Assembly (NCBI GenBank): GCA_965218875.1
Contig: CBDCMJ010000001.1
Coordinates: forward strand, 2,840 to 66,839
Direction: 5' to 3'
Length of the DNA stretch: 64,000 nt
Source: Dehalococcoidia bacterium
GTDB taxonomy: Bacteria; Chloroflexota; Dehalococcoidia; Lucifugimonadales; UBA3495
The notes beneath the pieces were generated by a model. The model was not told the DNA's origin and did no database searches. It worked only from the letters and a program-made list of their open reading frames with translations. Every line of letters begins with the position of its first letter. The first letter of the stretch is position 1. The position numbers were made by a program, and so were the translations under genes. Of the stretch, positions 1 to 61,594 are shown in pieces.

Positions 1-23
1 TCCGAATCACCCGGCCCAACCAG

Positions 24-46
24 AGCCTGCCCCCGCGTAGGCGGGG
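24..46 (+). repeat. 23-nt hairpin micro-insertion AGCCTGCCCCCGCGTAGGCGGGG, located 3' of CCAG
   Basis: It interrupts ..RPNQ|VWAADITY.. of the IS3 ORF. Stem CCCCGC/GCGGGG, loop GTAG. It shares its AGCCTGCCCC arm with the copies at 236-258 and 487-511. Confidence 0.7.
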
Positions 47-235
47 GTATGGGCCGCCGACATCACCTACCTGCCCATGGCCCGCGGTTTCCTCTACTTG
101 GTGGCAGTCATGGACTGGCACAGCCGGTACGTGTTGTCCTGGCGGCTGTCCAATACTCTGGAGGCCGGCTTTTGCGCCGAGGCGCTGGAGGAGGCCCTGG
201 GCCAGGGCCAGCCGGAGGTGTTCAACACCGACCAG

Positions 236-258
236 AGCCTGCCCCTGCGAAAGCAGGG
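236..258 (+). repeat. 23-nt hairpin micro-insertion AGCCTGCCCCTGCGAAAGCAGGG, located 3' of CCAG
   Basis: It interrupts ..FNTDQ|GSQFTS.. Stem CCCCTGC/GCAGGGG with a GAAA loop. It causes a +2 frame change. Confidence 0.7.
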
Positions 259-486
259 GGCAGCCAGTTCACCAGCCTGGAGTTCACCCAGGTCCTGCAG
301 GAGCAAGGGGTGAAGATCAGTATGGACGGGAAGGGGCGGTACCAAGACAATATCTTCGTGGAGCGGCTGTGGCGGACAGTGAAGTACGAGGAGGTGTACC
401 TGAAAGCCTACGCCAGCGTCCTGGAGGCCCAGAGGGGGCTGGAAGACTACTTCCGGTTCTACAACGGGCTCAGGCCCCATCAGGCC

Positions 487-511
487 CCCCGGTCGTGGCC
501 GGGGGCAGGCT
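487..511 (-). repeat. 25-nt hairpin micro-insertion (minus strand AGCCTGCCCCCGGCCACGACCGGGG), located 3' of CCAG
   Basis: It interrupts ..RPHQA|LGYRTPAEVF.. It has the same conserved arm in the opposite orientation. Stem CCCCGG/CCGGGG. Confidence 0.7.
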
Positions 512-666
512 CTGGGCTACCGGACCCCGGCCGAGGTGTTCCATGGGGAGCAGGGGACTGTAGTAGGGGATTCTAATGAAAGGAGGGGTTCACCGGGAGA
601 GGGGATCGAATCACTGGCAGGAGAGCCGGGATTCTCACGTAACTCCGCCCTGATCCTGTCCAAATA

Positions 667-1675
667 ATGGGTTCCACCTCACCTGACCTGGAACTGGAGC
701 CAGTGACATCCGAAGATGAGGACTATGTCAGCGCTCCAGCTGACTATCAAATCTCGACCTACCCGGCAGACTTCACATTGGAAGTTTTGCACCAAAAGTG
801 GCTAACTAAGGAAATCATCATACCGGAGTTTCAACGCGACTTCGTTTGGAAACAAACGCAGGCAAGCAAACTGATTGAGTCCTTCTTGGTTGGGCTGCCA
901 GTGCCCCCCGTGTACGTTTACACTGAAAGGGAATCACAATACTTTCTTGTAATTGACGGCCAACAGCGCCTGAAGAGCATCTTTTACTTCTTTGAGGGCT
1001 ATTTTGGAGAGGAAGCACAAGGTCAAAGGCGGGTGTTCCACCTTACTGGGCTAAGTACGGACAGTCGTTTCAAAGAGAAGTCGTTCGCAGACCTTAATGA
1101 AGCGGACCAGAGGCGGCTCAAGAATGCCGTGCTTCGGTCCTTCGTTGTGCAACAACTTGATCCGGAAGACGACACGAGCATGTACCATATTTTTGAGCGT
1201 TTGAACACGGGGGGTACGCTACTTACCAACCAAGAGATTCGCAACTGCGTCTACGATGGCAAATTTACGAAGTCTCTTACAACGCTTAACCGAGTGCCAG
1301 AGTGGCGAAAAATTCTCGGGAAGAATGATCCGGACAGTCGACAGAAGGATATCGAACTACTAGTCCGTTTTCTCGCTATGCGGGACCTCTCCGCTTACCA
1401 GAAGCCGATGAAGGACTTCCTATCGACATTCATGCGGAAGAACAAGAATGCACCGGAAGAGGCACTGGAACGAAGTCGGATGGTCTTCCGAGACACTTGC
1501 AAGCAGCTCCTGAAATCACTGGGAGAGAAGCCCTTTCACATCCGCTCGGGTCTAAATGCCGCCGTCTATGACGCAGTCATGGTTGCTTTCTCAGAACACC
1601 TTGACGCGGTTCCATGCGACATCCAGCAACGGTACAAGCAACTTCTCGAGGATGATGACTTCATCGGCAATACTA
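667..1675 (+). CDS. DUF262 / ParB-like nuclease-domain protein (GmrSD N-terminal type); 3' end severed by IS630 insertion
   Basis: Motifs IPEFQRDFVW and VIDGQQRL (the DGQQR signature of DUF262). The annotated ATG at 667 overlaps the IS3 stop and end, so the true 5' end is uncertain. The reading frame continues exactly into 2912-2984 once the IS is removed. Confidence 0.8.
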
Positions 1676-2805
1676 AACCAAAGCCAAGGTGGGATGTGCA
1701 TTTGGCTGAGGTTGGCGATGGGTCTGGGAGTCTTGCAGTAGCCTTTCGGCCCTTGATTGCAGGACTGTACGGCAGCGGCGTCTGACCTCTTCTTTCCGGT
1801 TGGCCAGCGCGGCGAGGAAGTTCCCGACCCTTTCTTGCACCCGGGACTTGGTTCCCAGGCACAGGTTTCCGGTGGCTTCCTCTCTCGCCCAGCCCCAGAC
1901 CGCCTCATCGGCGTTGAAGTCCGGACTGTAACCCGGCAGGTTTATCAGCCTCAGGGCCAAGCCCGGCGTCCGCAGGTATTCCCGCACCGCCTCCCCGCGG
2001 TGTGCCGGGGCGTTGTCCCAGATCACGCCTAGCGGCCCGGAGTGCCTCTGCCGCAACCGGTCCAAGAAGGCAGCCGAGGTTCCGGAGTTGCTGTTTCCCT
2101 CCAGCTCCATCCACTCCACCTCCCCGGTCTCCAGACACACTGCCGAGTAGTAGCTGGCCTTCTCGCCATAGCGCGGGCTGCTGGAGTCCACCAAAGCCTG
2201 CCCTCCCCGCAGGACCCACTTGCCCCGCAGTTCGGCGTCCGCACGGAAGTGGGCCTCGTCGGCGAAGAATATCTTGGTCCCGGACCGTTGGGCCTCCTCC
2301 GACAGGGCGGCGTACTCCGCCACGAAAGCCTCCCGCTTGGCCTCATCCGCCTTGAGCAGGCGCTTCTTGGGATGCCTCAGGACGAATCCCAGCCGGTGCA
2401 GATAGTTCAAACAACTGCTGCGGCTCAACTCGATGCCGAACCGTTCCGAGACAAACTGCCGAACTCCCTTCCAATACCAGTTGGCCAGTTCGACGCCCAC
2501 CTGCTCCGGCAACTCCTGCACCGCTGCCCTCAAATCCGCCTGTTGCGTCTCGCCAAGGGCGGGGGGGAACCCCCGGTCTGCTCGAACATCAAGGCTGCAG
2601 GCCCTCCCTCGCCGAAGGCCGACGCCCATCGTCCGATGGTGTGTGGGTCCCGTTCCAGCGCCTCTGCCGTCGCTGCTGCCGTGCAGCCCTGTGCCAGCAG
2701 CAAGATGGCGTACCAGCGCTCCCGTTCCCTGGGCGTTGGCGCCAGAATCATCCGGCGGCGCAAGGCCTTGGCATCCATCTGCCATTGTTCCAGAAACTGG
2801 TCCAT
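1673..2805 (-). CDS. IS630-family transposase (HTH part and DDE part in two frames, joined at a C7 run)
   Basis: N-terminal frame MDQFLEQWQMDAKALRRRMILAPTPRERERWYAILLLAQG..FEQTGGSPP. The downstream frame continues ALGETQQADLRAAVQELPE..IFFADEAHF..VIWDNAPAHRG..PGYSPDFNADE. The switch lies at the homopolymer GGGGGGG, around 2566-2572 on the plus strand. It is either a -1 programmed frameshift or a 1-nt indel. Confidence 0.85.
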
Positions 2806-2911
2806 CTCTCTCACGCCCATCACCAACCTCACTCAACTCCCAAGACCAGCTAACCCAGTTCTCCCCACAAATTTACCCCATGACTCTGCGCATTTCACCT
2901 TGGCTTTGGTT
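1676..2911 (-). mobile_element. IS630-family insertion sequence, complete, flanked by a duplicated TA
   Basis: Terminal inverted repeats AACCAAAGCCAAGGTGGGATGTGCA (1676-) and TGCGCATTTCACCTTGGCTTTGGTT (-2911). TA is present at 1674-1675 and at 2912-2913. It encodes an IS630/Tc1-type DDE transposase. Confidence 0.9.
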
Positions 2912-2984
2912 TAGGTACGGAACTACGGACGTAGATACCGTGCAACAGCGTTTCGCGGTGGCCAAGTCGGTCCTGTTCAGCTAG
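2912..2984 (+). pseudogene. Displaced 3' terminal 23 codons of the DUF262 gene
   Basis: Removing 1676-2913 gives ..DDDFIGNT-RYGTTDVDTVQQRFAVAKSVLFS* in the same frame as 667-1675. Confidence 0.8.
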
Positions 2985-2991
2985 GAGTTCC

Positions 2992-3594
2992 ATGATGAAA
3001 CTGCCCCGTATCGACAGGGCCTTGGTAGATTGCGAAAACCACTTGCATTCCACCGCGTCTTTCAATACCGAGATCGAAAGCCTGCTTACCTATTCCTTGC
3101 TTGTGGTGATTTACGCAGAATTTGAACAAATGGTTAACGTCATAGTGCAAGAAAAGTGCAATTCTATAGAGGATGAGGCTCTGCGGGAACTTGCCAAGTC
3201 ATGCATAGGTAGTGTCAGCCGAATACAATCTAGCCAAATGGGAGATATGCTGGAACGGTTTGGGGCTGGCCGGAAGGCAGCTTTCAGGAATGAAATTACC
3301 GCTAACCAAGGTAGGCAGAGAGCCGAAACCTTCTACAACAACCTGATAACTAACCGCCATGATACTGCCCATTCCATCGGATCCAATCTTACCTTTGGGG
3401 AAGTCAAGCGGTACTACCAAGAAGGCCAGGACGATTGCAAAGTTGTTCGATTCGCGCCGTCGTCCTCGGAGATGGCAGGACTCCAAGGCTGGAACTGTGG
3501 ATTCCCGCTTTCGCGGGAAAGAGGGGTTGGGGCAGATTCCACTGGGTGGAAGGACTTTGCAGTCGTCCTGCCAAGAAGGCCATGTGGTGCTTGA
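2992..3594 (+). CDS. HEPN-superfamily protein (Rx4H motif), partner of the DUF262 gene
   Basis: NRHDTAH gives the R-x4-H HEPN signature near the C-terminal third. The protein is predicted helical and AT-richer, like the DUF262 gene. The tail after about 3440 switches to GC-rich sequence, so the true stop may lie earlier or the 3' end may be replaced. Confidence 0.6.
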   Translation: MMKLPRIDRALVDCENHLHSTASFNTEIESLLTYSLLVVIYAEFEQMVNVIVQEKCNSIEDEALRELAKSCIGSVSRIQSSQMGDMLERFGAGRKAAFRNEITANQGRQRAETFYNNLITNRHDTAHSIGSNLTFGEVKRYYQEGQDDCKVVRFAPSSSEMAGLQGWNCGFPLSRERGVGADSTGWKDFAVVLPRRPCGA

Positions 3595-10038: not shown

Positions 10039-10115
10039 GGGCCTGTAGCTCAGGTGGTTAGAGCGCGGTCCTGATAAGACCGAGGTCGTTGGTTCGAGTC
10101 CATCCAGGCCCACCA
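10039..10115 (+). tRNA. tRNA-Ile (anticodon GAT), CCA encoded
   Basis: Hand-folded cloverleaf. Acceptor GGGCCTG/CAGGCCC, D stem GCTC/GAGC, anticodon stem CGGTC/GACCG with loop CTGATAA, T arm GTTGG-TTCGAGT-CCATC. The T stem has one U.U mismatch. Confidence 0.9.
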
Positions 10116-11692
10116 TGCGTTACTGTAGACAGAACCGGGGCGCTCAGGGCGATTTCCTGAGCGTCCCTGCCTTTTATCGGGCTGTCCTTCGGTGTGGGAA
10201 TGGTGTAGCGGATGGTGGCTTTGCCGGGGACCACGCCGATCTCCTTGACGAATGACCGGATGAAGGCCCTGGTCTCGGTCAACTCGCTCTCCATCAGGAA
10301 GTTGCTCATCTCCTTCACGTAGGCGGCGATAGTCTCCTCGTCGCCCAATCCCTGCATCCGCACGGCCAGGATGGCCCTTGCTTCATCGGCGGCAATCTCC
10401 AGCCTCTCCTGCCGTTCCTTATGCTCCCGGATGCGGGGCAGGATGTCATTGATCTCCAGGTCGGTGGTCTCCACCGCCTGCCAAAGCCGGTCCAACCGCC
10501 GGCGTATCTCGTTCAGCTCCTCATCAACGGCCTCCGCCTTCTCCCGCTGCTCCTTGATCACGCTGTCCAGTTCTTCGTTGACCAGCTTGACCAGTTCCCG
10601 GATGTTGCTCTCGGTGAGGATGTTCTCCCGTATCGAGTCGATGATCATCCGCTCGAACCGCTTGGAGTTGAGCCTGGGAGTGTCGCAGGCACCCTGCCCC
10701 CGCTTCAGGAGGGAGTGGCAGACGTAGTAGGTGAACTGGCCGCTCTTGGCCTCGTGGGCGGTGAGGGCCTTGTCACAGGTCTCGCACCTGACTATTCCGC
10801 TGAGCAGGTAGGGGCTGGCGGCGCGGCGGGGATGTATCTTGGCCGGGGCTTTGGAGCCAAGGATGGCGGACACCCGCTCGAATTCGTCTCGTGAGACGAT
10901 GGCGGGGAAAGCGTTGTCCACCCGCACCGGCGGCACGTTATCCTTGGCGCGGCTGCCCCATATCAACGTTCCGGTGTAGGTCTCGTTGGTGAGAATCCGG
11001 TGGATGGTGGTCTTGGTCCAGCGGCTCCCCTGGGGGCTGGCGATGCCCTCCCTGTTCAGGGTCTTGGTGATGTCCAGGGTGCTGGTCCCGAGAAGGGCCA
11101 TCTGGAAGATGCGGCGCACCACGCCGTCGGCGGGCGGATCAAGCTCCAGCTTGGGGCGCTTCTTGGCTCCGTCCTGAACCGGCACCTTCCGGTAGCCGTA
11201 GGGGGAATAGGTGGAAATCCAGAAGCCACGGGAGGCGGCCTCCCGCATTCCCCGCAAAACCTCCTGGGCAAGATTTTCCGAGTAAAATTCGTCCAGGCTC
11301 TCGATGATGGCCTCCATCAGCTTGCCGGTGGGGGAGTCGTCGGCGTGCTCGGTGATGGAGGTTACCCTGATGCCCCGCTTGCGGAGCATGGACTTGAAGG
11401 CCACGGCGTGCTCCCGCTTGCGGGTGAAGCGCGAGAATTTCCAGACAAGGATTTCCTGGAAAGGGGAGTCGGACAGACTGGCCTCGTCCAGCATCCGGCG
11501 GAACTGGGGCCGGTCTGCGATGCGGCCGCTCTCGGCCTCGTCGATGTACTCGCGGGCGACTACATAGCCGTTCTTTTCGGCGTAGTCCCGGAGCGCCCGA
11601 AGCTGGGCGGCGACGGAGAGGTCCACGTCCTGGCGGTCGCTGGAAACCCGGGCGTACAGGGCAGCCGGGGTCAGGTCATATCGTTCATTCAT
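10058..11692 (-). CDS. Large serine recombinase (ICE integrase); 3' end overlaps tRNA-Ile
   Basis: N-terminal resolvase catalytic domain (ALYARVSSDRQD..), recombinase domain, zinc-ribbon cysteines (CETC..C..C) and a coiled-coil. The last 19 codons (..GGPGWTRTNDLGLIRTAL*) are the reverse complement of the tRNA 3' half. Confidence 0.9.
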   Translation of the reverse strand: MNERYDLTPAALYARVSSDRQDVDLSVAAQLRALRDYAEKNGYVVAREYIDEAESGRIADRPQFRRMLDEASLSDSPFQEILVWKFSRFTRKREHAVAFKSMLRKRGIRVTSITEHADDSPTGKLMEAIIESLDEFYSENLAQEVLRGMREAASRGFWISTYSPYGYRKVPVQDGAKKRPKLELDPPADGVVRRIFQMALLGTSTLDITKTLNREGIASPQGSRWTKTTIHRILTNETYTGTLIWGSRAKDNVPPVRVDNAFPAIVSRDEFERVSAILGSKAPAKIHPRRAASPYLLSGIVRCETCDKALTAHEAKSGQFTYYVCHSLLKRGQGACDTPRLNSKRFERMIIDSIRENILTESNIRELVKLVNEELDSVIKEQREKAEAVDEELNEIRRRLDRLWQAVETTDLEINDILPRIREHKERQERLEIAADEARAILAVRMQGLGDEETIAAYVKEMSNFLMESELTETRAFIRSFVKEIGVVPGKATIRYTIPTPKDSPIKGRDAQEIALSAPVLSTVTHGGPGWTRTNDLGLIRTAL

Positions 11693-16659: not shown

Positions 16660-19238
16660 CAGGCGTCACCTCCGGAACCACTCCCCGGCGGGTTGGGGTT
16701 GCGGGTTCGCGTCCGGTGCTGCCCGCCGGTCTGGTCCGTGGCCGGAGGCTGCGCCGGTGGGGAACCATTGGCGTTCTGCCGCTCCGCCAGGAGCCTGCGG
16801 TACTCGCTCACCCTCTGCTCCCCCTCGGCGTTGCCGGCCGCGATCTGGCCGGCGCTGGTGGTGTAGCCACGGGAGGCGTTGCGAACGGCCTCGGCCACCT
16901 CGGGGTCGCCCGGCTCCGGCTTGCGGACCATCATCGAGTAGGCGGGCAGACGCTCCGTCCCCACGGTGGCCCGCACGTAGCACTGATGGACCGGCAATGA
17001 CGTGATGTCGTCCTCGGTCACCCGGTCCTTGCCCAGCTCCCACACCAGCCGGCGGGCGTCGTTACCGGCCACCTGGAACACCGCCAGGCAGCCCAGGTTG
17101 GCCAGGATGGTGTCCTGCATGGTGCGGGAGAGGTCGTCCAGCTTGGCCAGGCTCTGCGTCGCCAGGATGAAACTGGCGCCGTACTTGCCCAGCTCGCTGA
17201 GCATGGACTCGTAATCGACGCCGGGCATGGACTGCATCTCGTCCACGACCACCAGGGCGCCCCGCCGCCGGTGCAGGGGCAGGCTCTCCTGCTCCCGGAT
17301 CACCGAGTCCACCAGGTTGAGCAGGGACGCTCCCACCAGGGCGGCCACGTCCCTGCCCGCCGTCCCCTGGGCGGTGGACACCAGCAGCACGCCGCCCTCC
17401 AGGATGGTCTCCCGCAGGTCGATGGTGGAGCGGGACTGGCCCAGAATGGAGCGGGCGCGCTTGGAGGAGGCGTAGTAGGCCAGGCGGGTCTGCACCGGGG
17501 CCAATGCCTCGGCCCGGTACTGGCGGTGCCAGCCGCCGAAGTCCCGCTCCCACCACTCCATGATGTAGGGGTCGGAGACCTTCGCCAGCACCTCGCCCCG
17601 GAACTTGCCGTCGGAGAGGAGCTTCAGCCCGTCCAGGATGGTGTGCTGGTCGCCGGCGTCGGTGGAAGGGTGGGCGTTGGCCTCGTGCAGGGTCTTGACG
17701 GTGTGCTCCAGGATGGACTGCATCCGTGGACCCCACTGTTCCCACAGGCCCCGCGCCACCCGCACCACCGAGTCGGCGGTGCGGTCCCTATCGGCGAAGA
17801 TGCGGGTGTCCAGCAGGTTGATGCCCGGCGCGCCCTGTTCGTCGGCCAGGTCGATGAGCCTCACTTTGTCGACGATGGACCCGGGGACGTGCTCCAGCAG
17901 CCCGGCCACCAGGTCGGCATGGGGGTCGACGACGATGATGGCGTCGCCGTCCCGGCCCGCCGCCTTCTCCCTGAGCTTGTGGACGACGATGTGGTGCATC
18001 AGGGTGGACTTGCCCATGCGGGTGCGGGCCACGTAGAGATGGTGACGGCGCAGCAGGTCCTCGGGGAAGCGAATCTCCCGGGTCTGCCCGCCGGTGGTGT
18101 CGCCCACCAGCGCGCCCTCGGCAGTGCCCCGGACCGGGGGCAGCAGGGACCTGGAGCCGGAGCGTTCCACCAACGGAGTCTCGTCACGCTCGCCGGGCGG
18201 GTGCCACAGCGTGGCCGCCTCTCGCACCCCCAGGATGCTGCGCTTGCCGAACAGACCCGGCCCGGCGGGGTGCAGGTTGTCCGTGGGAACCAGGGGTTGT
18301 ACGTCGCCGACCTTGAACCTGGCCCCGGCGGGATGATCGAAATGGCGGTAGGCGGCGGCCACCCCTTCCAGCAGTTCCTCGGCCCGCTGGATGCGGCCCC
18401 GTTCCGGCAGGACTGCCACCACCTGCAACTCGGCGTCGAAGGCGATGCGGGAGACCTTCTCCCGTATCAGGATGGGGTCGTAGACCCGGCTGCGGGCCTG
18501 CTTCCAGCGCCACCAGCCCCAGCCCGCCACGGTCAGGCCCAGGACGGAGCCCGCGCCCAGGAGCGACGCCTTGAGGAACTCGCCGTCCTGTACCCACAGG
18601 TAGCCCTTCAGGGCGGCCAGCGCCCCCGCGCCCAGCACGGCCATGGTGACGCCGTCCAGCTGCAGGGGCTTGGTCTGGTAGGTGTAGGAGGGATCGGGCC
18701 GCTGCTGGCCCGGGTTCTTGAAGGCCTTCTGCTGGTGAGCCTGGGACCAGTCGGGACCCAGGGAGCGCAGCAGCAGGCGGGAGACCAGCCGCTCGCCGGG
18801 CCGCAGGTCGCCGAGCGCGCCCAGGAGGGCAATGAGCGGATCGGAGCCGGCGTCCAGCAGGTCGTCGTCCCGGAAGGTGCGCAGGGGGACGAACTCCGGC
18901 CCGCCGGAGCGCAGAGTCAGGCCCCAGGCCTGCTCCCCCGGGTCCAGCCGCAACGGGTCGTCCCCGGGCGGTACCTCGCGGATGCGGGCCTGGGGGTAGT
19001 GGGCGGCCAGCTGTCCCTGGACCACCTGCCGGTCCAGGCAGCGGGCCATCAGGGTGACGCCGCTGGCGTCACCGGCCAGCTCCAGGGAGAAGGGTTCGGG
19101 GACGGCGATGGACTGGAGCAGGTTCTCCACGCCCAGCAGGGTCCGCTCGCCGGTGCGCGGCGGCGTCACCGCCAAAAGGGCCGGAGGACGACGGTTCCGG
19201 GCGTCGCCGAAGATGATTTTCTTCACGTTGATATTCAT
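16659..19238 (-). CDS. Type IV coupling protein (VirD4/TraD/TcpA-like ATPase)
   Basis: N-terminal TM region, Walker A ARTRMGKSTLM, Walker B ALVVVDEMQS. It sits next to VirB4. Confidence 0.75.
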   Translation of the reverse strand: MNINVKKIIFGDARNRRPPALLAVTPPRTGERTLLGVENLLQSIAVPEPFSLELAGDASGVTLMARCLDRQVVQGQLAAHYPQARIREVPPGDDPLRLDPGEQAWGLTLRSGGPEFVPLRTFRDDDLLDAGSDPLIALLGALGDLRPGERLVSRLLLRSLGPDWSQAHQQKAFKNPGQQRPDPSYTYQTKPLQLDGVTMAVLGAGALAALKGYLWVQDGEFLKASLLGAGSVLGLTVAGWGWWRWKQARSRVYDPILIREKVSRIAFDAELQVVAVLPERGRIQRAEELLEGVAAAYRHFDHPAGARFKVGDVQPLVPTDNLHPAGPGLFGKRSILGVREAATLWHPPGERDETPLVERSGSRSLLPPVRGTAEGALVGDTTGGQTREIRFPEDLLRRHHLYVARTRMGKSTLMHHIVVHKLREKAAGRDGDAIIVVDPHADLVAGLLEHVPGSIVDKVRLIDLADEQGAPGINLLDTRIFADRDRTADSVVRVARGLWEQWGPRMQSILEHTVKTLHEANAHPSTDAGDQHTILDGLKLLSDGKFRGEVLAKVSDPYIMEWWERDFGGWHRQYRAEALAPVQTRLAYYASSKRARSILGQSRSTIDLRETILEGGVLLVSTAQGTAGRDVAALVGASLLNLVDSVIREQESLPLHRRRGALVVVDEMQSMPGVDYESMLSELGKYGASFILATQSLAKLDDLSRTMQDTILANLGCLAVFQVAGNDARRLVWELGKDRVTEDDITSLPVHQCYVRATVGTERLPAYSMMVRKPEPGDPEVAEAVRNASRGYTTSAGQIAAGNAEGEQRVSEYRRLLAERQNANGSPPAQPPATDQTGGQHRTRTRNPNPPGSGSGGDA

Positions 19239-19273: not shown

Positions 19274-21526
19274 CTAATGACGCGGCCCCGGCCGCCACTC
19301 GATTACCTCGGTCTCTTCGGGGGTGGCCTCGATGCGGATGGGGAAGCGGTTGCCCCTTGCCAGCAGCAGCCCGTCTCCCCGAGGACAGGACAGGAGCCAG
19401 CGTTGCAGCTCCACCGGCAGGTCGAAGGCTTCGCCCACGGTGCTGATGGCGGCGGCGTCCTGCTGCAACAGCAGCTTGAAGGCGGCGTTCTGGAGCAGCG
19501 CCCTGCCGGAGTGGCCGGTGATGGCGCGCGACGAGTCCTCGGAGAGCAGGTCCTGCACGTCCTGGGTGATGAACTGCAACCCCAGCCGGTGCTTGCGGGC
19601 GCGCTTGGCCATGCTGACCATGAATGCCGCCCCTTCGGGGTGCTGCATGATGCTCCACACCTCGTCCACCACCAGCAGGCGGGGCCGGGGGTCTTGGGCG
19701 GCGGCGGCCCATACCGTCTCGGTGCAGACCATCGCGGCGGCGGGACGCAGTTCCGGTTCCAGCAGGTGCAGGTCGAAGACGGTGACCAGGGCCTCGTGGG
19801 TCAGCAGGTCGTCGCCCTCGTCGGAGAGCAGGTGGCGCAGGCTACCGGTGGCGAAGGGCCGCAGCAGGTGGGCGATGTCGCCGCCCTCGGCTTCCAGGTA
19901 GGCGTAGAAGTCGCGGAATCCGGTGCGCTCCCTATGCTCGGCGTAGTAGCCCGCCAGGGCGTGATCCAAAGACGAGCGCCGCTCGGCGCTGAGCCGCTCC
20001 CCCACCATCACCTCGATGAGACGCCGCAGGCTGCCGATGCGCTGGAGCAGTTCCTCGCTGTCGCCCCGATCGATGACGAAGGGGTTCATGCCCTGCCCCG
20101 CGATTCCAGGGGACAGCACCCTCCCGCCGGCGGCGCGGGCCATGTCGGCGTACTCGCCCTCCGGGTCGATCACGTAGGCGCGCACGCCACGGCAGACGCC
20201 GCGCAGCACCCCCAGCTTGGTGGCGAAACTCTTGCCGCTGCCGGAACGGGCTAGGACGGCGGTGTTGGCATTCAGGTGGGTGCCGTCGAAGGGGTCGTAG
20301 ACGATGGGGGCGCAGGCCCGCAGGTCGATGCCGTAGAGAGTGCCGCTCCTGGTGTCCAGGTCCGGCGGCGAGAAGGGGAAGAGCCGCGCCAGCGACGACG
20401 TGTCCAGGGTCCGCCACACCGCCACGGCGTTGAGGCCCAGGGGCAGGGTGGACAGCAGGCCCTCGCGCTGCCGGAAGGCCAGGTTGTCCAGCTTGCCCAG
20501 GGTGGCGGCGAAGTGGGCGCGGGCCTTCTGGGTCAACTCCTTCAGCCCGTCGGCGTTGTCGGCGTGCAACGTCACCGACAGGGAGGCATGGAACAGCCGC
20601 TCCCGTCCCCGCTGTACTTCATCGCGCAAACGGCTCACGTCCTCCAGGGCGATCTCCGCCTCCGGCGACAGGCTGCGGCCCCGGTTCAGAGACAGGGATT
20701 GCGCCGACTCGAAGCGGACCTTCTGCCACTCCAGGGTGCGGGCGGCCTGCTCCGACGGAATGGCGCCCAGGTGGACCGACAGATCCATGGGCGCTCCGGC
20801 GGCCATCAGCCCCTGTAGGAAGCCCGGGGCCAGCAAGCGGGGCCACTTGCCCAGGTGCAGGGAGCGGGTCAGGTGGGCTCCGACGCGGATGTCGCGGCGG
20901 TTGATCTCCACCGCCAACTCTGTGTCTTCATCACGGTCAATGGGTGAACCCCCAAGGGCCGAGGCCAGCAGCAGGAGGCGCAGCGGTTCTCCTTTCAGGG
21001 GGAACACTCCCAGCCCGGCCCGGGCCAGCAGCCCACGCATCTCGTCGGCGCGGTTGTGTTCGCAGATGGCGTAGAAGCGCCGGTCCAGGATTCCCTCCCG
21101 GGATTCCAAGCCGGTCAGGAGCCGTCCCAGGGAGTCGGCGGCATCTCGGGTCTGCTGGGGCAGGTCCTCGGGCTGGGCTTGTTCAAGATTGGCCCGCAGG
21201 CTTTGAAACACCGGCGGGTGCTGGCGGACCAGCAGTTGCACCGGGAAGTCCAGGGCGTTCAACGAACCGGCGAAGGCCCCCAGCTTGGGCTCGTCCAGCT
21301 CCAACCCCATCACCTCCAGCACCCCCAGCTTCACCCCGTCCAGCCGCACCGGCCCGTCCTCTTCCAGGTGGGACAGCATGAAGAACAGGGACAGCGGGGG
21401 TGGCGGCTTGGGTTCCGCCGTCTCGGTGAGCTCGATGTCATTGGGTTGAATTTCCTCGGACGCTGCGGGATTTTCCTTCCTGCCGCGTCCGGCCAGCTTC
21501 TTCAGGTTGGGTAGTGTCGCTTTCAT
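19274..21526 (-). CDS. VirB4/TrbE-like conjugative ATPase (ICE copy A)
   Basis: Walker A ARSGSGKSF, Walker B RLLVVDEVWSIM, about 750 aa. It is the homolog of the partial ORF at 61942 onward. Confidence 0.85.
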   Translation of the reverse strand: MKATLPNLKKLAGRGRKENPAASEEIQPNDIELTETAEPKPPPPLSLFFMLSHLEEDGPVRLDGVKLGVLEVMGLELDEPKLGAFAGSLNALDFPVQLLVRQHPPVFQSLRANLEQAQPEDLPQQTRDAADSLGRLLTGLESREGILDRRFYAICEHNRADEMRGLLARAGLGVFPLKGEPLRLLLLASALGGSPIDRDEDTELAVEINRRDIRVGAHLTRSLHLGKWPRLLAPGFLQGLMAAGAPMDLSVHLGAIPSEQAARTLEWQKVRFESAQSLSLNRGRSLSPEAEIALEDVSRLRDEVQRGRERLFHASLSVTLHADNADGLKELTQKARAHFAATLGKLDNLAFRQREGLLSTLPLGLNAVAVWRTLDTSSLARLFPFSPPDLDTRSGTLYGIDLRACAPIVYDPFDGTHLNANTAVLARSGSGKSFATKLGVLRGVCRGVRAYVIDPEGEYADMARAAGGRVLSPGIAGQGMNPFVIDRGDSEELLQRIGSLRRLIEVMVGERLSAERRSSLDHALAGYYAEHRERTGFRDFYAYLEAEGGDIAHLLRPFATGSLRHLLSDEGDDLLTHEALVTVFDLHLLEPELRPAAAMVCTETVWAAAAQDPRPRLLVVDEVWSIMQHPEGAAFMVSMAKRARKHRLGLQFITQDVQDLLSEDSSRAITGHSGRALLQNAAFKLLLQQDAAAISTVGEAFDLPVELQRWLLSCPRGDGLLLARGNRFPIRIEATPEETEVIEWRPGPRH

Positions 21527-21547
21527 CGGTGAATCTCCTTTTTTCTT

Positions 21548-21895
21548 CTATGGGCCGGGCAGGACTTCGATGATCCGGCTGTTGAGCGCGGCGGCGATGC
21601 CCTTGGCCAGCAGCACCACCACCAGCCCGACCACGGCCATGATTACGGCGTTCCTGGCTTTTCCCCGCCCAGAACCTTCTCCCTCGGCGCCCTCGGCCAT
21701 CAGGACGAACCCCGCCCAGACGATGGCGAAGAAGCACAGGCCCACCCCGGCGTAGGCCATGCCGGTCAGCACCACGTCGAAGGCGGCCAGCATCCTTGCC
21801 TTCTCGTCCGGCGCGGCGGCGGCCACGGAGGCCAGCGCCGCACCGGAGGCGAGCAGGGTCTTTGCCACGCGCCCTACCACGGCCACCAGTCCCAC
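21548..21895 (-). CDS. Small integral membrane protein, T4SS-associated (GTG start)
   Basis: It aligns with 61576-61920 (..MLAAFD.VLTGMA.AGVGLC.FAIVWAGFVLMAEGAEGEG.GRGKARNAVIMAVVGLVVVLLAK). It overlaps the stop of the upstream ORF, as in copy B. Confidence 0.6.
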   Translation of the reverse strand: MGLVAVVGRVAKTLLASGAALASVAAAAPDEKARMLAAFDVVLTGMAYAGVGLCFFAIVWAGFVLMAEGAEGEGSGRGKARNAVIMAVVGLVVVLLAKGIAAALNSRIIEVLPGP

Positions 21896-23493
21896 CAGTT
21901 GGAATCGCCCACCGGCGTCTGCTCCGCCCTGGGCGGCGGGGGTGTGGGCGGTGGAACGTGCAGGGCCTCGTATGGGTCGTCGGCCCCCACGCCCAGAGCC
22001 TGCCCCGCACTTGATGCGGGGGCCGGGGCCAGGGGCGCCGTCTCCGGCCTGGTCCGGGTGACCGGAGCGCGCTGGGTCTCGACGGCCCGCACGTGCTCCG
22101 GGTGGTGGACGTAGATACGGACGGTCCTGGTCACCGAGGAACCCTCGCCGCAGGACAGGCTCACCCGCCGGGTATACACGTCGGTTCGGGCCGGGTGGTG
22201 GGTGGTCTGCAACATCGGAGGCAGCGGCACGTTCAGCGTCGCCGTAAGGTCCGCCGTGATTTCCAGGTTGTGGACCGCCTTCCTGTTGGCGACGGGCAGC
22301 CGGAACCGGGTCTCGCCGCCCGCGACGAAGGACACGCTGGCCCGGTGGCTTCCGGCGGCGACGTCGACCCTGCCAGCGATTCGGGTGACGCTGGCGTCCA
22401 GCAGGGCGGGGACGTTCTGGCTGAAGTGGCCGCCGTACACCGGCAGGTCCACCTCCTGGCGGGTCTCGGCGATACACTCCGAGGCGATGACGCCGGAGAT
22501 GCTGCCCGGCGTCCACTCCAGGGAGGTCAGCTCCAGGTCGCACAGCCCGCCGTCGGCCTGGGGCAGGGGGTAGGGTATCTGGCCGCTCTTCAGGGTCACC
22601 GCTCCGGACCGGCCCAGGGCGTCCAACCAGGAGAAGGTGAAGGACGGCGACGGGCCGTTCAGGGTCAGGTTGTAGCTCTTGCTCTGGCCCGCCGTCAGGC
22701 TGGTGTTGGCCCCCATCTTCAGGGTCCGGCCCGACCTGCCGCCGAAGACCCGCACCTTCAGGTCCAGGTCGTGGGCCGCCCGCAGGGTGACGGCGGCGGT
22801 GTCGCCGGAGACGGCGAGACGTTCGATGAAGATGCGCCGTCCCGGCACCGGCTCCGGCGGGACGAAGTAGATCTCGTCCAGCCGCCAGCCCGGGTCCTCG
22901 TCGGGGTCGTCGGCCAGGACGGCGCTGGGCAGCAGGACCACCGCCAGCAGGCCCAGCGCCGCCACCGCCAGGAAGCGGTTCCAGGGTTTCTTGCCCTTGG
23001 ATTCATGCTGGCTGGGGTTGGGGCCGTTGCCGCCGTCCCGGTTGCGGCGTTTGCCGAACCAGCTGTGGGGACGGAACGGTGCTCTCCCCTTCTTGCGGGC
23101 AGCCCTGACCCCCCGGCTCAAGCCGGAGGCGGCTTTCTTGGCCAGCAGCCGCAGCGGGTCGGGCCTGGCCTCCGGCGGGGCGGGCGGCTCGCTCTTGGTC
23201 ATTTCCAGCGGGGACCCGGCGTAGCGCCTGGCCCCCAGGTTGAACTTCAGCAGGTCGGCGGCCACCAGGGGCAGCCCCCGGCCTCCCACCTTGCCCACGG
23301 TCAGGGCAATTCCCACGACGCCGATCAGCACGCCAACCGCCAGGCGCACCGCCATCGGGCCGAAGGGCAGGTAGTGGAAGGCTCCGTAGGACACGGCGCA
23401 CACCGCCACCACCGCCACTATCTGGGGAAAGGTGAACCACAGCAGCACTTTATCCTCGGCCTGCACGTGGGTTGGGACTTCATGCTCTCTCAT
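21874..23493 (-). CDS. PrgI/VirB3-like N-terminal membrane domain protein with a large extracellular region
   Basis: MREHEVPTHVQAEDKVLLWFTFPQIVAVV is the PrgI-family start pattern. It has two to three TM segments followed by about 350 aa of beta-rich region. It is paired with 59975-61594. Confidence 0.65.
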   Translation of the reverse strand: MREHEVPTHVQAEDKVLLWFTFPQIVAVVAVCAVSYGAFHYLPFGPMAVRLAVGVLIGVVGIALTVGKVGGRGLPLVAADLLKFNLGARRYAGSPLEMTKSEPPAPPEARPDPLRLLAKKAASGLSRGVRAARKKGRAPFRPHSWFGKRRNRDGGNGPNPSQHESKGKKPWNRFLAVAALGLLAVVLLPSAVLADDPDEDPGWRLDEIYFVPPEPVPGRRIFIERLAVSGDTAAVTLRAAHDLDLKVRVFGGRSGRTLKMGANTSLTAGQSKSYNLTLNGPSPSFTFSWLDALGRSGAVTLKSGQIPYPLPQADGGLCDLELTSLEWTPGSISGVIASECIAETRQEVDLPVYGGHFSQNVPALLDASVTRIAGRVDVAAGSHRASVSFVAGGETRFRLPVANRKAVHNLEITADLTATLNVPLPPMLQTTHHPARTDVYTRRVSLSCGEGSSVTRTVRIYVHHPEHVRAVETQRAPVTRTRPETAPLAPAPASSAGQALGVGADDPYEALHVPPPTPPPPRAEQTPVGDSNWWDWWPW

Positions 23494-23506
23494 TCCATCC
23501 CTCCTT

Positions 23507-23779
23507 CTAGCTGTCGGTCGGGTCGGGCACGGTGGGGTCCACCGGGTTGCCCACCACGGCGTTCATCACCAGCTCAACGACGCCATAAGCGACGAGGGCC
23601 AGCACGATGCCGGCCAGGGCGGTCATCATGGCCGCCTTGCCCCGCTCCATCTGGTTGGGCGCTCCGGAGGCGGTGAGGTACATGTAGGCGCCGTAGATGA
23701 AATAGCCCACGCCGACGACGCCCACCAAACCCAGCAGGATGCCCACCAGGTTCGATATGGTCTGTGTCAGGTCGTCCAT
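23507..23779 (-). CDS. TrbC/VirB2-like pilin-type small membrane protein
   Basis: 90 aa with two hydrophobic helices flanking YMYLTASGAPNQMERGKAAM. It is nearly identical to 59668-59964. Confidence 0.6.
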   Translation of the reverse strand: MDDLTQTISNLVGILLGLVGVVGVGYFIYGAYMYLTASGAPNQMERGKAAMMTALAGIVLALVAYGVVELVMNAVVGNPVDPTVPDPTDS

Positions 23780-23931
23780 ACGGTTTTTCTCCTTTCAAAT
23801 TGGATTGCCCGATATGTGAATTGCGTTGCTGTGGTCGGCCCCAATCTGCTACTGGCACATGTCTCCACCTCCCGGGCGGTTCCGGCGCGAAACCTGTCCG
23901 CGCCGGTGGTTGTCGTCGTTCCGGTTGCTGG

Positions 23932-24912
23932 CTACGGCCCCTGGCTGCGGGGCGTCGGGCCGCTTTGGGCCGGGGAAGTGGAGTTCTGGGCCGCCGAGTT
24001 CACCGCTCCGGCGGCCGTGGTGGCGGCGGCGCTGGCTGCGCCGGTCGCCGCTGACGCGGCGGCAACTCCCGCCGGTCCTCCGGCAGCTCCACCGGCCAAC
24101 ATCCCCAGGGCGCGGCCAGAACGCACCACCGAGCCGGGCAGGGACATCCCGAAGTAGAGGGTGTGCAGCCAGGCGTCGAAGGTCCCGTGATGCCCCAGCA
24201 TCGAGGGCACCCGGCCCGCCAGGTACATGAAGGCGATGGCCATCAGCAGCTTCCACACCAGGTCCTCCGACGGCTCGAAAGCGGCGATGGCGGCGAAGTC
24301 CTCCAGAAAGGCGAAGGCCAGGGCCACGGCGATGAGCTGGATTGCCTGCTGGAACACCGTGGTCATGAACAGCCGGAGCCAGTGCTTTCCCCAACCGGCG
24401 GTGTGGGGCAGAATCCACAGCCCCAGGGCGATGGGCGCCAGGCAGAGCAGGATGTCAATCAGGGCCAGGCGCAGGATCATCTGCACCAGCAGGTAGAGGA
24501 CGAAGAAGCCGAAGACCAGGTAGAGCAGGGCGATGAACACCGCCAGGCCGGTGTTGGCGGTCTCGACGGCGGTCAGCAGCGGCTCCAGGGGAGCCCGCAG
24601 CAGGGCGCCGGGGGTCACGTCCAGGGAGACGGCGATGAACTGGGAGACGGCGTGGGCCACGTCGATGACCAGGGCGCACCACCAGAGGGACGACGCGGCG
24701 GCGGTGAGTCCCAGGACCAGCCGGGGCACCATCTCCCGCCAGCCCGACTGGTGGTGGCCCAGGTGCTCCTGGACGATGAAGCTCAGCCCCATCCAGCCCA
24801 GGATCACCGCCAAAGCGCCGGAGGTGATGGCCCAGACCACCATCCACGCCTGCTGGATGAAGGGATGCAGGTAGGTGAGTTCAGGAGGAGTTCCGGTGAG
24901 GATGTCCGTCAT
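23932..24912 (-). CDS. VirB6/TrbL-like polytopic membrane protein
   Basis: It has six or more hydrophobic segments and an Ala/Gly-rich tail. By eye it is about 97 percent identical to 58542-59522. Confidence 0.65.
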   Translation of the reverse strand: MTDILTGTPPELTYLHPFIQQAWMVVWAITSGALAVILGWMGLSFIVQEHLGHHQSGWREMVPRLVLGLTAAASSLWWCALVIDVAHAVSQFIAVSLDVTPGALLRAPLEPLLTAVETANTGLAVFIALLYLVFGFFVLYLLVQMILRLALIDILLCLAPIALGLWILPHTAGWGKHWLRLFMTTVFQQAIQLIAVALAFAFLEDFAAIAAFEPSEDLVWKLLMAIAFMYLAGRVPSMLGHHGTFDAWLHTLYFGMSLPGSVVRSGRALGMLAGGAAGGPAGVAAASAATGAASAAATTAAGAVNSAAQNSTSPAQSGPTPRSQGP

Positions 24913-24918
24913 ACGTCC

Positions 24919-25542
24919 CTACCCTCCCCGGCACTCGTCGAGGTCGCTGGCCGACACCTTCTGCACCACGCCGCACAGGGTCCCGTGGACTCCCTGGATG
25001 ACCCACTTGGCGGCGGCCCGGGCCCAGCGGTCGGGGTCGAGAGCGCCCAGCACCCGGTCCCACAACCCGTTGGGCTGGTGGACGGGAATCAGGGCGTGGA
25101 AGACGTGGTGGTCGCCGCCCCCGGTGCGCGGAACGGCCAGCACCAGGAGATATGCCTGCTCGGGGTGAAGCTCGGGCTGCTCGTCCAGGGCCGGGTACTC
25201 GAAGGTGTACTCCCAGCCTTCGGAGAGGTGCTTTTCGCCGCCCTGGACCCGGTAGGTATTGGTGAGCCAGTCGCCGGTGTCGGGGTGGCGGATGGAGTAG
25301 AACAGGACATCGGTCTTCCGGCTGAGGATGGGGCGGGCCACGAAGTCGCCCTCCTTCTTCCGCTCCACCATCTGCCGGTCCCGGTTGACCAGGGTGACGG
25401 AGTCGGTGTCGGGGGGCGGCGGGGACTGGGCCAGTGCCAGCCCAGAAGCAGGGATGGCAACGAGGGCCGTAAAGAGCAAAGCCCCTGCCAGGAGAATCAG
25501 GCGGCGGGCTTTGCCGGACCTGGGGATGAATCGGCGGAACAT
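24919..25542 (-). CDS. Secreted protein of the T4SS operon (signal peptide)
   Basis: MFRRFIPRSGKARRLILLAGALLFTALVAIPASGLALA is a signal peptide. It is the homolog of 57915-58535. Confidence 0.6.
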   Translation of the reverse strand: MFRRFIPRSGKARRLILLAGALLFTALVAIPASGLALAQSPPPPDTDSVTLVNRDRQMVERKKEGDFVARPILSRKTDVLFYSIRHPDTGDWLTNTYRVQGGEKHLSEGWEYTFEYPALDEQPELHPEQAYLLVLAVPRTGGGDHHVFHALIPVHQPNGLWDRVLGALDPDRWARAAAKWVIQGVHGTLCGVVQKVSASDLDECRGG

Positions 25543-41938: not shown

Positions 41939-42063
41939 CCGGCCTTGTACAATGCAGTGACGATAGAAGACCTGTACTGGGAGAGGACAACATCAACTGG
42001 CAGGCCATGGCCATTCGGCTCGGTCGAGAATGCCTGGTTCGCCTTATAGGAGACCCATCTGAA

Positions 42064-56626: not shown

Positions 56627-56666
56627 GCCAAGCCAGCGCCGCCCTCCACGCCGGCACCGCCGCCGC

Positions 56667-57835: not shown

Positions 57836-57914
57836 GGGGGTTGGAGTCGGGGCGGGCGGTCTCCACACTGGCTTGGCGAACATCGGTTCGCAATCCAAAC
57901 CGGAGGAGGCCGCC

Positions 57915-58535: not shown

Positions 58536-58541
58536 GGATTT

Positions 58542-59974: not shown

Positions 59975-61594
59975 ATGAGAGAGCATGAAGTCCCCACCCA
60001 CGTGCAGGCCGAGGACAAGGTGCTGCTGTGGTTCACCTTTCCCCAGATCGTGGCGGTGGTGGCGGTGTGCGCCGTGGCCTACGGCGCTTACCACTACCTC
60101 CCCTTCGGCCCTATGGCGGTCCGCCTCGCCGTTGGCGTGCTGATCGGCGTGGTGGGCATCGCCCTGACCGTGGGCAAGGTGGGAGGCCGGGGGCTGCCCC
60201 TGGTGGCCGCCGACCTCCTCAAGTTCAACCTGGGGGCCAGGCGCTACGCCGGGTCCCCGCTGGAAATGACCAGGAGCGAGCCCCCCGTCCCGGTGGAGGC
60301 CAAGCCCGACCCCCTGCGGCTGCTGGCCAAGAAAGCGGCGAGCGGTGTAGGACGGGCGGTGAACGCTGCCCGCAAGATGGGGCGTGCCCCCTTCCGTCCC
60401 CACAGCTGGTTCGGCAAACGCCGCCGTCCGAAGGATGGAAATAACCAGCAGTTCAAGCCGGAGGAGACCAAACACAAGAAGCCCTGGAACCGCTTCCTGG
60501 CGGTGGCGGCCCTGGGACTGCTGGCCGTTGTCCTGCTGCCATCAACAGCCCTGGCCGACGACCCCGACGACGAGGACCCGGGCTGGCGGCTGGAGGAAAT
60601 CTACTTCGTGCCGCCCGACCCGGTGCCGGGACGCCGCATTTTCATCGAGCGGCTGGCCGTCTCCGGCGACACCGCCGCCGTCACACTGCGGGCGGCCCAC
60701 GACCTGGACCTGAAGGTCAGGGTCTTCGGCGGCAGGCAGGGCCGGACCCTGAAGATGGGGGCCAACACCAGCCTGACGGCGGGCCAGGCCAAAAGCTACA
60801 ACCTGACCCTGAACGGCCCGTCGCCGTCCTTCACCTTCTCCTGGGTGGACACCCTGGGGAGGTCCGGGGCGGTGACCCTGAAGAGCGACCAGATTCCCTA
60901 CCCCCTGCCGTCAGCGGACGGCGGGCTGTGCGACCTGAAGCTGACCTCCCTGGAATGGACGCCGGGCAGCATCTCCGGCGTCATCGCCTCGGAGTGCATC
61001 AGTGAGACCCGGTACGAGGAACCCCTGCCGGTGTACGGCGGCCACTTCAGCCAGACGGTCCCCTCCCTGCTGGACGCCTCGGTCACCCGCATCGTGGGGA
61101 CGGTCAACATAGCTGCCGGAAGCCACCGGGCCAGCACGCCCTTCGTCGCCGGCGGCCAGACCCGTTTCACCCTTCCGGTCGCCAACCGCAAGGCCACCCA
61201 CGGGGTGGAAATCACGGCGGAGTTGACGGCGACGCTGAACCTGCCGCTGCCGCCCATGTTGCAGACCACACATCACCCGGCCCGGACCGACGTGTATACC
61301 CGGCGGGTGAGCCTGTCCTGCGGCGAGGGTTCCTCGGTGACCAGGACCGTCCGTATCTACGTCTACCACCCGGAGCACGTGCGGGCCGTGGAGGTCCAGC
61401 GCGCTCCGGTCAGCCGAACCCGCCCGGAGACGGTTCCCCTGGCCCCGGCCACCGTATCGAGTACGGGGCAGGCTCTGGGCATGGGGGCCGACGATCCCTA
61501 CCAGGCACTGCACGTTCCCCCGCCCACACCCCCGCCGCCGAAGGCGGAGCAGGCTCCCGTTGGCGATTCCAGCTGGTGGAGTTGGCCGTGGTAG
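59975..61594 (+). CDS. PrgI/VirB3-like membrane protein with a large extracellular region (copy B)
   Basis: It has the same 539-aa length and the same N-terminus as 21874-23493. Confidence 0.65.
   Translation: MREHEVPTHVQAEDKVLLWFTFPQIVAVVAVCAVAYGAYHYLPFGPMAVRLAVGVLIGVVGIALTVGKVGGRGLPLVAADLLKFNLGARRYAGSPLEMTRSEPPVPVEAKPDPLRLLAKKAASGVGRAVNAARKMGRAPFRPHSWFGKRRRPKDGNNQQFKPEETKHKKPWNRFLAVAALGLLAVVLLPSTALADDPDDEDPGWRLEEIYFVPPDPVPGRRIFIERLAVSGDTAAVTLRAAHDLDLKVRVFGGRQGRTLKMGANTSLTAGQAKSYNLTLNGPSPSFTFSWVDTLGRSGAVTLKSDQIPYPLPSADGGLCDLKLTSLEWTPGSISGVIASECISETRYEEPLPVYGGHFSQTVPSLLDASVTRIVGTVNIAAGSHRASTPFVAGGQTRFTLPVANRKATHGVEITAELTATLNLPLPPMLQTTHHPARTDVYTRRVSLSCGEGSSVTRTVRIYVYHPEHVRAVEVQRAPVSRTRPETVPLAPATVSSTGQALGMGADDPYQALHVPPPTPPPPKAEQAPVGDSSWWSWPW

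Follow-up and report, generated by a model that had tools for sequence, protein, structure and literature searches.

The stretch of 64,000 nucleotides analyzed here (the window) comes from a Dehalococcoidia bacterium (GenBank assembly GCA_965218875.1, contig CBDCMJ010000001.1, positions 2,840 to 66,839). It begins in the broken OrfB gene of an IS3-family insertion sequence (IS), which is interrupted by three small hairpin-forming inserts. The insertions have exact boundaries and follow a preferred target sequence, and they belong to a family of elements found in many phyla, with a concentration of its copies in transposase genes. The family, recognized by an AGCCTG head in front of the hairpin, is apparently undescribed, and a literature search on the AGCCTG-hairpin sequence returned no relevant paper. 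It is very probable that the inserts represent real, target-specific insertion of an element resembling repetitive extragenic palindromic (REP) sequences. With modest confidence, we favor the fuller reading that each of them is one copy of a REP-like mobile DNA that is non-autonomous and would be moved as folded single-stranded DNA (ssDNA) by an HUH/Y1-type enzyme acting in trans. The HUH/Y1 mechanism, considered by itself and by analogy with known systems, is a tentative proposal, with chances that are close to even or a little short of it.

Three inserts in one IS3 gene and the family they define

As it stands, the OrfB reading frame is broken. Exact excision of the three inserts (Table 1) restores a single open frame, RITRPNQVWAADITY...TDQGSQFTS...RPHQALGYRTPAEVF, which contains the family motifs PNQVW, TDQGSQF and RPHQALGYRTP, and the translation of which matches Pfam rve (E 7e-22) and rve_3. 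Intact OrfB homologues of 314-315 amino acids (aa), with 90-95% identity, are numerous in the protein database and are uninterrupted at all three insert points. DNA alignment against three intact IS3 copies shows clean gaps of 23, 23 and 25 nt, with ~92% identity elsewhere. CCAG precedes each insert, and a target duplication is found at none. The boundaries are ambiguous by 1 nt (CCAG^G or CCA^GG), because the G of the target supplies the last stem pair.

Each unit starts with six unpaired nucleotides, the head AGCCTG, which lead straight into a 7-bp hairpin, and folds as ssDNA with -8.7 to -9.8 kcal/mol (-9.8 for insert 1, -8.7 for each of inserts 2 and 3; z from -2.1 to -3.5 across the three). 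The outer four pairs of the stem are CCCC/GGGG, and the inner three are variable yet complementary. The inserted piece comes without the final stem G, and the next G of the target closes the stem. There are two classes of loops, GNAR (4 nt) and CYNGA or CCNNGA (5-6 nt), and the loop sets the length of the unit, which is 23, 24 or 25 nt in 96, 57 and 22 copies, respectively. The window and the related and scanned loci (L001-L004, L125-L244) together contain 166 copies with 62 hairpin variants. The head AGCCTG precedes 139 of 148 family-type hairpins (3 of them offset by one base). Two-sided changes of the inner three stem pairs occur in 22 cells, a count that is partly circular, since the sequences were preselected for at most one stem mismatch. 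The window contains the exact 10-mer of head plus clamp, AGCCTGCCCC, 6 times, where 0.59 occurrences are expected, and none of 100 shuffles reaches 6. One 24-mer, consisting of the head AGCCTG and the hairpin CCCCCGCGAAGGCGGGGG, recurs identically 37 times. An inverted partner within 130 nt was seen for just 4 of 182 copies; the other 178 are singlets.

Much of this had been anticipated by a first-pass annotation of the window, made from the letters alone. It had described the restorable IS3 OrfB, a shared arm followed by a stem-loop with differing but complementary inner bases (AGCCTG and a 7-bp stem in all three inserts), two copies in one orientation and one inverted, and the lack of target duplication. 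All these descriptions are borne out. None of the three conditions that it had named for its own refutation holds: the segments are missing from intact IS3 copies, the motif is over-represented in the window, and a 5' flank preference is common to independent copies.

Table 1. Positions in the window of the broken IS3 element, its inserts and the further copies of the family
Feature	Position	Strand	Details
IS3-family element, 3' two-thirds, OrfB integrase core, now a pseudogene	1..681	+	cut by the window start; right end near 681
Target tetranucleotide CCAG, 5' of insert 1	20..23	+	IS3-gene sequence (codons AAC CAG); intact copies have it at their empty sites
Insert 1, IS3 site A, between codons for PNQ and VW	24..46	+	AGCCTG + CCCCCGC-GTAG-GCGGGG, 23 nt; target G at 47 forms the 7th base pair
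Insert 2, IS3 site C, between TDQ and GSQ	236..258	+	AGCCTG + CCCCTGC-GAAA-GCAGGG, 23 nt, after gaCCAG
Insert 3, IS3 site D, between HQA and LGY	487..511	- (inverted)	AGCCTG + CCCCCGG-CCACGA-CCGGGG, 25 nt, after gcCCAG on the minus strand
Family member, 24-nt in-frame insertion	21997..22020	+	AGCCTG + CCCCGCA-CTTGA-TGCGGG after gcCCAG; in the 539-aa ORF 21874-23493(-), read as APASSAGQ
Paralogous copy in ORF 59975-61594(+)	61451..61474	-	stem with compensatory change GTA/TAC for GCA/TGC, plus one later mismatch

A natural before/after pair is provided by a closely related contig (L004; ENA ERZ25072010 contig_9, 1.9 Mb), which was reached via a window protein and the flanking genome of which is 96.1% identical to the window. 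Its two IS3 copies, one of them orthologous, have the first two inserts but not the third, and window positions 1-681 are 100% identical to the second copy save for one 25-nt gap. The absence of insert 3 from otherwise identical copies indicates a very recent gain, or a precise loss in L004. Insert 3 is also missing from every other IS3 copy compared, and by this comparison it appears to be the youngest of the three. The broken IS3 with two inserts has itself undergone a recent duplication or exchange. Insert 2 is common to both L004 copies and absent from the other IS3 copies compared. Insert 1 is found identically at site A in both L004 copies, L176, L157 and L186, whereas the hairpin that occupies this site in L193 is another one.

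Pairwise comparison of insert-bearing IS3 copies gives synonymous divergences (dS) of 0.33-0.65, with a ratio of nonsynonymous to synonymous changes (dN/dS) of 0.17-0.37, and the 23-nt insert at site A is still identical in all of them, L193 with its other hairpin being a further copy. It follows that the inserts are young compared with the divergence of their hosts, and that site A has been hit repeatedly. Additional frameshifts or stops are present in 4 of 6 independent insert-bearing IS3 copies and in neither of the 2 intact copies. From the sequences, the frame shift caused by each IS3 insert would inactivate the transposase, and insert-bearing copies would then begin to decay.

Several observations concern variants and candidates at the edge of the family. 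The 10-mer match at window positions 17276-17285(-) was set aside as a chance occurrence, as it has neither a CAR flank nor a clean hairpin. An excess of G·T wobbles, as a sign of RNA or of a strand-specific fold, was unconvincing (7 T·G versus 5 A·C or C·A). A recurrent variant, in which stem pair 4 is a T·G mismatch (CCCTCG...CGGGGG), is present at L132:739 and 817, L190:7728, L001:4839, L167:3452, L216:1274 and in L229 (minus strand). These copies have differing inner stems and unrelated flanks and come from several genomes, including an Acetobacteraceae metagenome-assembled genome (MAG), and judging by its sequence the mutated unit seems to have been copied onward. At L175:5106 and 5858 (Dehalococcoidia OZ244861.1), the hairpins CCCCCGCGCAGGCGGGGG and CCCCCGCGAAGGCGGGGG stand behind another head, AAGTCG, which hints at more tag subfamilies. 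The top-scoring database match of OrfB (P0001) is a 328-aa protein with two tandem rve cores, probably a mis-called or rearranged IS3 fragment.

Target sites, hosts and distribution

Copies within the scanned loci that fail the scan pattern provide an unbiased set of 31 unique target sites. In their 5' flank, position -4 is Y in 24, -3 is C in 18 and -2 is A in 28 cases, and position -1 is G in 16, A in 11, T in 4 and C in none, which gives the consensus Y-C-A-R. The CCAG flank of the first-pass annotation therefore holds for the three IS3 inserts and fails as a strict rule. The expectation that independent copies share a 5' preference was correct, with Y-C-A-R followed by G as the general target. 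Insertion occurs in either orientation, and all aligned presence/absence sites of the IS3 and IS630-like elements lie after Y-C-A-R, without duplication. IS3 copies across genomes hold the element at four sites (A-D), all of them CCAG^G followed by G or T; the 1.34-kb IS3 element contains 26 CCAGG sites and 34 Y-C-A-R^G sites. The IS630-like family has at least four presence/absence sites, at TTCAR^G, AACAG^G, GCCAR^G and GCCAG^G. Their presence/absence matrix fails the four-gamete test, which requires recurrent insertion, precise loss or recombination. The last three bases of the head, CTG, are the Watson-Crick complement of the consensus flank CAG. An involvement of Dcm/Vsr, considered because the IS3 targets are all CCAGG, was dropped, as the general target includes TTCAA^G and GCGCAG^G.

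A public collection with one genome per species was scanned with CAGAGCCTGCCCCCG-N4-10-CGGGGG, which yielded at least 120 loci. These loci were selected for carrying a copy, copies in multi-copy ISs are not independent, and the taxonomy of MAGs is as deposited. Among the matches listed, 46 loci are from Dehalococcoidia MAGs, and others are from Alpha-, Beta- and Gammaproteobacteria, Planctomycetota, Binatia, Verrucomicrobia, Rhodothermales, Nitrospinota and Zixibacteria; cultured sphingomonads and Rubrivirga are among them, too. The identical 24-mer is present across phyla. Copies are also carried by viral contigs, and among the PLSDB plasmids, matches were found in two Sphingomonas plasmids only, with nothing annotated beneath the match. 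Bystander copies, which are those that fail the scan pattern, amount to ~83/Mb in 363 kb of Dehalococcoidia loci versus ~13/Mb in 522 kb from other phyla, in loci picked for containing a copy; the window has 5 in 64 kb.

Host open reading frames (ORFs) were judged by Pfam scans, because asking whether removal of the element lengthens an ORF is too noisy at 65% GC. When the element was removed from 59 Dehalococcoidia sites and the restored ORFs were scanned, the Pfam matches were almost all to transposase domains (DDE_3, rve, DDE_Tnp_1, IS66, DDE_Tnp_1_4, DDE_5 and their helix-turn-helix domains), with one match outside ISs. About 25 of the 59 sites lie in transposase ORFs, with no assignment for the others, and all five window copies lie within ORFs. 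The recognizable hosts overall include transposases of IS3, IS630, IS5, IS66, IS1380, IS256 and IS91. Hosts in other phyla include IS256, IS1, IS91 with its integrase, and an IS4-like gene, and the genes for PolA, a DEAD helicase and hydantoinase B contain in-frame copies. The predominance of IS genes, as a share of the recognizable hosts, most likely reflects tolerance of frameshifting inserts and hitch-hiking on ISs between genomes.

Many copies sit in the GCAG loop of ATTCCCGC-GCAG-GCGGGAAT hairpins that are preceded by CGTC. This hairpin is the CGTC-1 REP, alias the Neisseria dRS3/REPIN sequence (PMC3733652; bioRxiv 10.1101/2021.07.10.451892). At L129:1060-1360 and in L212, L222 and L233 (Dehalococcoidia CBDANJ01), a composite repeat of ~230 bp consists of two CGTC-type REP hairpins (ATTCCCGC... 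and ATTCCGGG...), with an AGCCTG element in each loop; here, the nested small repeats are copied as one larger unit. In L131, L228 and L243 (Proteobacteria), the element follows GACA(G/A)GCTCAG within another widespread repeat, with ...GACAGGCTCAG and GGCGAACG... on the two sides of the insertion point. This repeat has CAGGCT, the reverse complement of the head, directly upstream of the insertion point.

The other two members of the family in Table 1 lie in 539-aa ORFs. Both host ORFs are intact, and the copies are at paralogous positions in the arms of a large inverted duplication. Among 120 homologues and the two window paralogues, the 8-aa segment AP.SS.GQ is present in 42 of 122 proteins, and an empty form, x-[AG]LGVG, in 30 of 122. 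In the segment-bearing sequences, the residue pair that reports one stem pair covaries (V-T in 21, A-A in 17, mismatched in 4). The 8-aa polymorphism represents a canonical 24-nt in-frame insertion. As deduced from the proteins, the empty site would read GCCCAG^GGCCTG, a 12-mer that it would share with IS3 site D. The IS3 orfB (487-511) and the 539-aa ORF (21997-22020) are unrelated genes, apparently with the same 12-mer target, and both encode Q-A-L-G on the opposite strand. The 12-mer resembles the left junction of the element itself, CAG^AGCCTG.

Proposed mode of movement, competing explanations and the surrounding window

In the mechanism that we consider, one unit of 23, 24 or 25 nt would be placed between Y-C-A-R and the following G, in either orientation. 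Units would travel as folded single strands, by means of an HUH/Y1-type enzyme (RAYT, that is, REP-associated tyrosine transposase, or IS200-like) supplied in trans. The left cut would be made 3' of the flanking Y-C-A-R, and the right cut before the final stem G, in a single-strand cut- or copy-and-paste of single hairpin units. The CTG of the head may act as a guide that selects the target, by pairing with the CAG of the flank in the manner of the IS200/IS605 guide tetranucleotides and as proposed for REP/RAYT. An HUH-type ssDNA mechanism is favored because the anatomy matches that of REP elements and IS200/IS605 ends; HUH/Y1 enzymes in REP and IS200/IS605 systems cut folded single strands where the tag pairs (PMC8266576, PMC6006769).

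Several results weigh against this proposal. The first-pass annotation had taken insertion 3' of a fixed short sequence without duplication as a hallmark of Y1 transposition; this pattern stands, and a Y1_Tnp gene was found neither in the window nor in ~2 Mb of element-bearing loci. In the same sequences, phmmer searches with IS608, IS200 and E. coli RAYT queries gave nothing below E = 1, and a hidden Markov model of 120 RayT homologues gave no match at E <= 10, although it recovered 120 of 120 positive controls. The RAYT or IS200/IS605 tnpA gene that the annotation had suggested looking for was thus not found there. Two RayT loci (L245, L250) contain no AGCCTG hairpins. In an all-against-all clustering of the ORFs neighboring the copies, the only recurrent neighbors are IS transposases. 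The tag is neither GTAG nor CGTC, and the copies are almost all singlets, whereas the model of REPINs (inverted REP doublets) deems singlets immobile remnants (PMC3116915). Diverged IS copies share an identical hairpin variant at the same site, which is not expected from simple random transposition. Targets lie within ssDNA hairpin loops in 41 of 156 cases (26%) versus 19%, which is marginal (p = 0.03) and clear only for the REP-loop cases. The relation of orientation to the sign of the local GC skew in 8-kb loci is weak (Fisher p = 0.02-0.004), with copies that are not independent.

The sharing of variants may suggest that the inserts spread among IS copies mainly by gene conversion or repair from a filled paralogue, and that true transposition is rare. 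Different IS copies and genomes have one and the same variant at a given site, and the IS3 with inserts 1 and 2 shows 100% identity in two strains that diverge by 4% in their backbone. However, the bases adjoining the identical insert in L186 differ from those of other copies, so that any conversion tract would have to be under about 40 nt. Moreover, the family occupies many unrelated, non-homologous sites, and two copies of the same rare T·G variant have unrelated flanks. We therefore consider this explanation unlikely.

Alternatively, a dedicated anti-transposon or hyperparasitic system could aim hairpins at transposase genes, as a host defense or as a parasite of ISs, with site- and variant-specific ('homing-like') insertion. 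Nearly all recognizable genic hosts are indeed transposases, from at least 10 IS families and several phyla. The identity of the 23-mer at IS3 site A across the divergences given above implies repeated recent hits rather than inheritance, a second variant is present at this site in L193, and the IS630 matrix fails the four-gamete test. However, the core target Y-C-A-R^G is generic, with its 34 sites in the 1.34-kb IS3, and copies are also found in REP loops, intergenic DNA and housekeeping genes. Selection by itself would gather frameshifting inserts in ISs, which are dispensable, no gene associated with the element turned up among the neighbors in the sampled loci, and the transposase share refers to the recognizable hosts. 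A directed system of this kind is thus quite doubtful. A broader proposal would make the singlet 23-25-nt hairpins the mobile unit of a cross-phylum family that acts as hyperparasite or antagonist of ISs, re-hits codon-aligned sites with the same variant in a 'homing-like' fashion, disables the transposases in 10 or more IS families and uses an enzyme other than a neighboring RAYT; taken as a whole, this is improbable.

A third possibility is that the IS3 is still functional, because the inserts are removed or bypassed at the level of RNA or translation (as mini-introns, by ribosome hopping, or by +1/-1 recoding on C5/G5 runs). Low dN/dS among insert-bearing copies, perfectly conserved inserts, and stem covariation like that of a selected structure are in line with this idea. 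Against it, those inserts in functional non-IS genes whose length could be determined are in frame and read as protein, as is the 8-aa segment with its V-T or A-A covariation, frameshifting lengths of 23 and 25 nt occur in IS genes, and the insert-bearing ISs decay, most insert-bearing IS3 copies having extra frameshifts or stops. Rfam, searched at a permissive threshold with four element-rich loci, gave only tRNAs and one sub-threshold chance match, and no family that fits the element. Removal or bypass is therefore very unlikely. Finally, an immobile local mutational product (quasi-palindrome templated synthesis or slippage) or an assembly or adapter artefact has next to no probability: the hairpin 3' half GTAGGCGG at IS3 site A resembles, by inspection only, the flank GTGGGCGG, but this resemblance fails at other sites, unrelated sites of both Illumina and long-read MAGs, as well as of cultured isolates, have the same head and hairpins in many phyla, and the identical 24-mer recurs 37 times.

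A GmrSD_N (DUF262) gene (667-1785) has the broken IS3 on one side and, on the other, an IS630-type (DDE_3) transposase gene that is apparently intact (1673-2836(-)), and is followed by a HEPN RiboL-PSP gene (2992-3594); the Pfam labels for the genes in 667-3594 were taken from the near-identical L004. The inverted duplication, 19459-27833 and 54261-64000, has arms with 85-95% identity over blocks that reach 1.57 kb. It holds the pair of 539-aa ORFs, which have no Pfam hit, and neighboring genes, and the ORF family is multi-copy in related MAGs (e.g. two members on a 1,901,046-bp contig). The arms are possibly two copies of an integrated element of conjugative type. A tRNA-Ile(GAT) gene (10039-10115) adjoins or overlaps a 544-aa ORF (10058-11692(-)), the near-identical L004 counterpart of which is annotated as a large serine recombinase, and past this point the GC content climbs from about 58-63% to 66-70%; the region is probably the boundary of an integrated element. 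A giant ORF of 2877 aa, at 42007-50640 (+) and 50763-51560, contains tandem repeats of ~288 nt (9-11 copies, 64-89% identical) and of ~135 nt, and its product looks like a repetitive surface protein.

Relation to known repeat systems

The IS3 locus and its relatives bear on the question of how REP-type repeats spread. They offer natural before/after sites at single-base resolution, and with them predictions about cleavage sites and guide pairing that can be tested. From the concentration in transposase genes, one may suspect a layer at which two classes of mobile DNA interact, and the presence of the identical 24-mer in different phyla points either to hitch-hiking on ISs or to an enzyme that is widely shared. 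In practical terms, the inserts create frameshifted 'pseudogene' transposases, which annotation pipelines will miscall.

REP elements are 20-50 nt long (PMC8266576), and short palindromic REPs with GTAG and CGTC tags have been described (Di Nocera 2013, PMC3733652; Corneloup 2021, PMC8266576; Quentin 2018, PMC6006769). The units described here, which had at first been taken to be far smaller than REPs, are within this range. They share with REPs an unpaired conserved tag 5' of a short GC-rich hairpin, a loop of 4-5 nt, stem covariation between subfamilies, what appears to be a dispersed multi-copy distribution, an occurrence in several phyla, and occasional in-frame copies in genes such as polA and helicases. 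In contrast, their tag is (AG)CCTG and not GTAG, GTGG, CGTC or the class 3 CnGA foot. REPs are mainly extragenic, whereas the five window copies are all in ORFs. A further difference is that single-unit insertion can be followed here to the exact base, and that both its target and its boundaries are defined. No RAYT was found nearby in the window and the ~2 Mb of loci, and the element inserts into the loops of CGTC-type REPs.

With the REPIN-RAYT system, in which a domesticated Y1 transposase is held to move the hairpins, the family has in common that its hairpin DNA is non-autonomous. The Neisseria REP 20-mer ATTCCCGCGCAGGCGGGAAT (bioRxiv 10.1101/2021.07.10.451892) is the exact sequence whose loop often receives the element. 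However, the replicative unit of REPINs is the inverted doublet, and singlets are held to be dead remnants (Bertels and Rainey 2011, PMC3116915), whereas singlets are the inserting units here. REPINs are also reported to be mostly vertically inherited and to differ between species, in contrast to the identical 24-mer that spans phyla.

Insertion 3' of a short specific sequence without duplication, and a guide-like sequence at the 5' foot of the hairpin, are also features of IS200/IS605 elements, and our presence/absence patterns are compatible with precise loss. In contrast to them, the element has one hairpin instead of left and right ends and has neither cargo nor transposase gene, a Y1 gene was not found in the loci searched, and the bias of orientation with respect to local GC skew is only weak.

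In behavior, the nearest analogue are the cyanobacterial small dispersed repeats (SDRs), very small dispersed modules that are inserted precisely at a specific short sequence. SDR4-6 are reportedly 21-27 nt in size. Judging by the descriptions of SDRs, the present family is set apart by another target, high GC content, occurrence in many phyla and concentration in transposase genes. Passages of the published accounts locate SDR5 after the third base of HIP1 and before its fourth (PMC4390886) and report SDRs only from Nostocaceae (PMC5861425).

The Rickettsia palindromic elements (RPEs) offer a parallel for in-frame palindromic repeats that are tolerated inside protein-coding genes. They differ in being AT-rich and lineage-restricted, without reported concentration in transposase genes. 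Elements of the RPE-1 type are, in addition, much longer than the present units. RPE-4 and RPE-6 have been classed as CGTC REPs (PMC3733652). Taken together, these comparisons describe a family that is REP-like in its working, yet departs from described REPs in its tag, in the extragenic location, in the doublet unit and, in the loci searched, in the neighboring RAYT.

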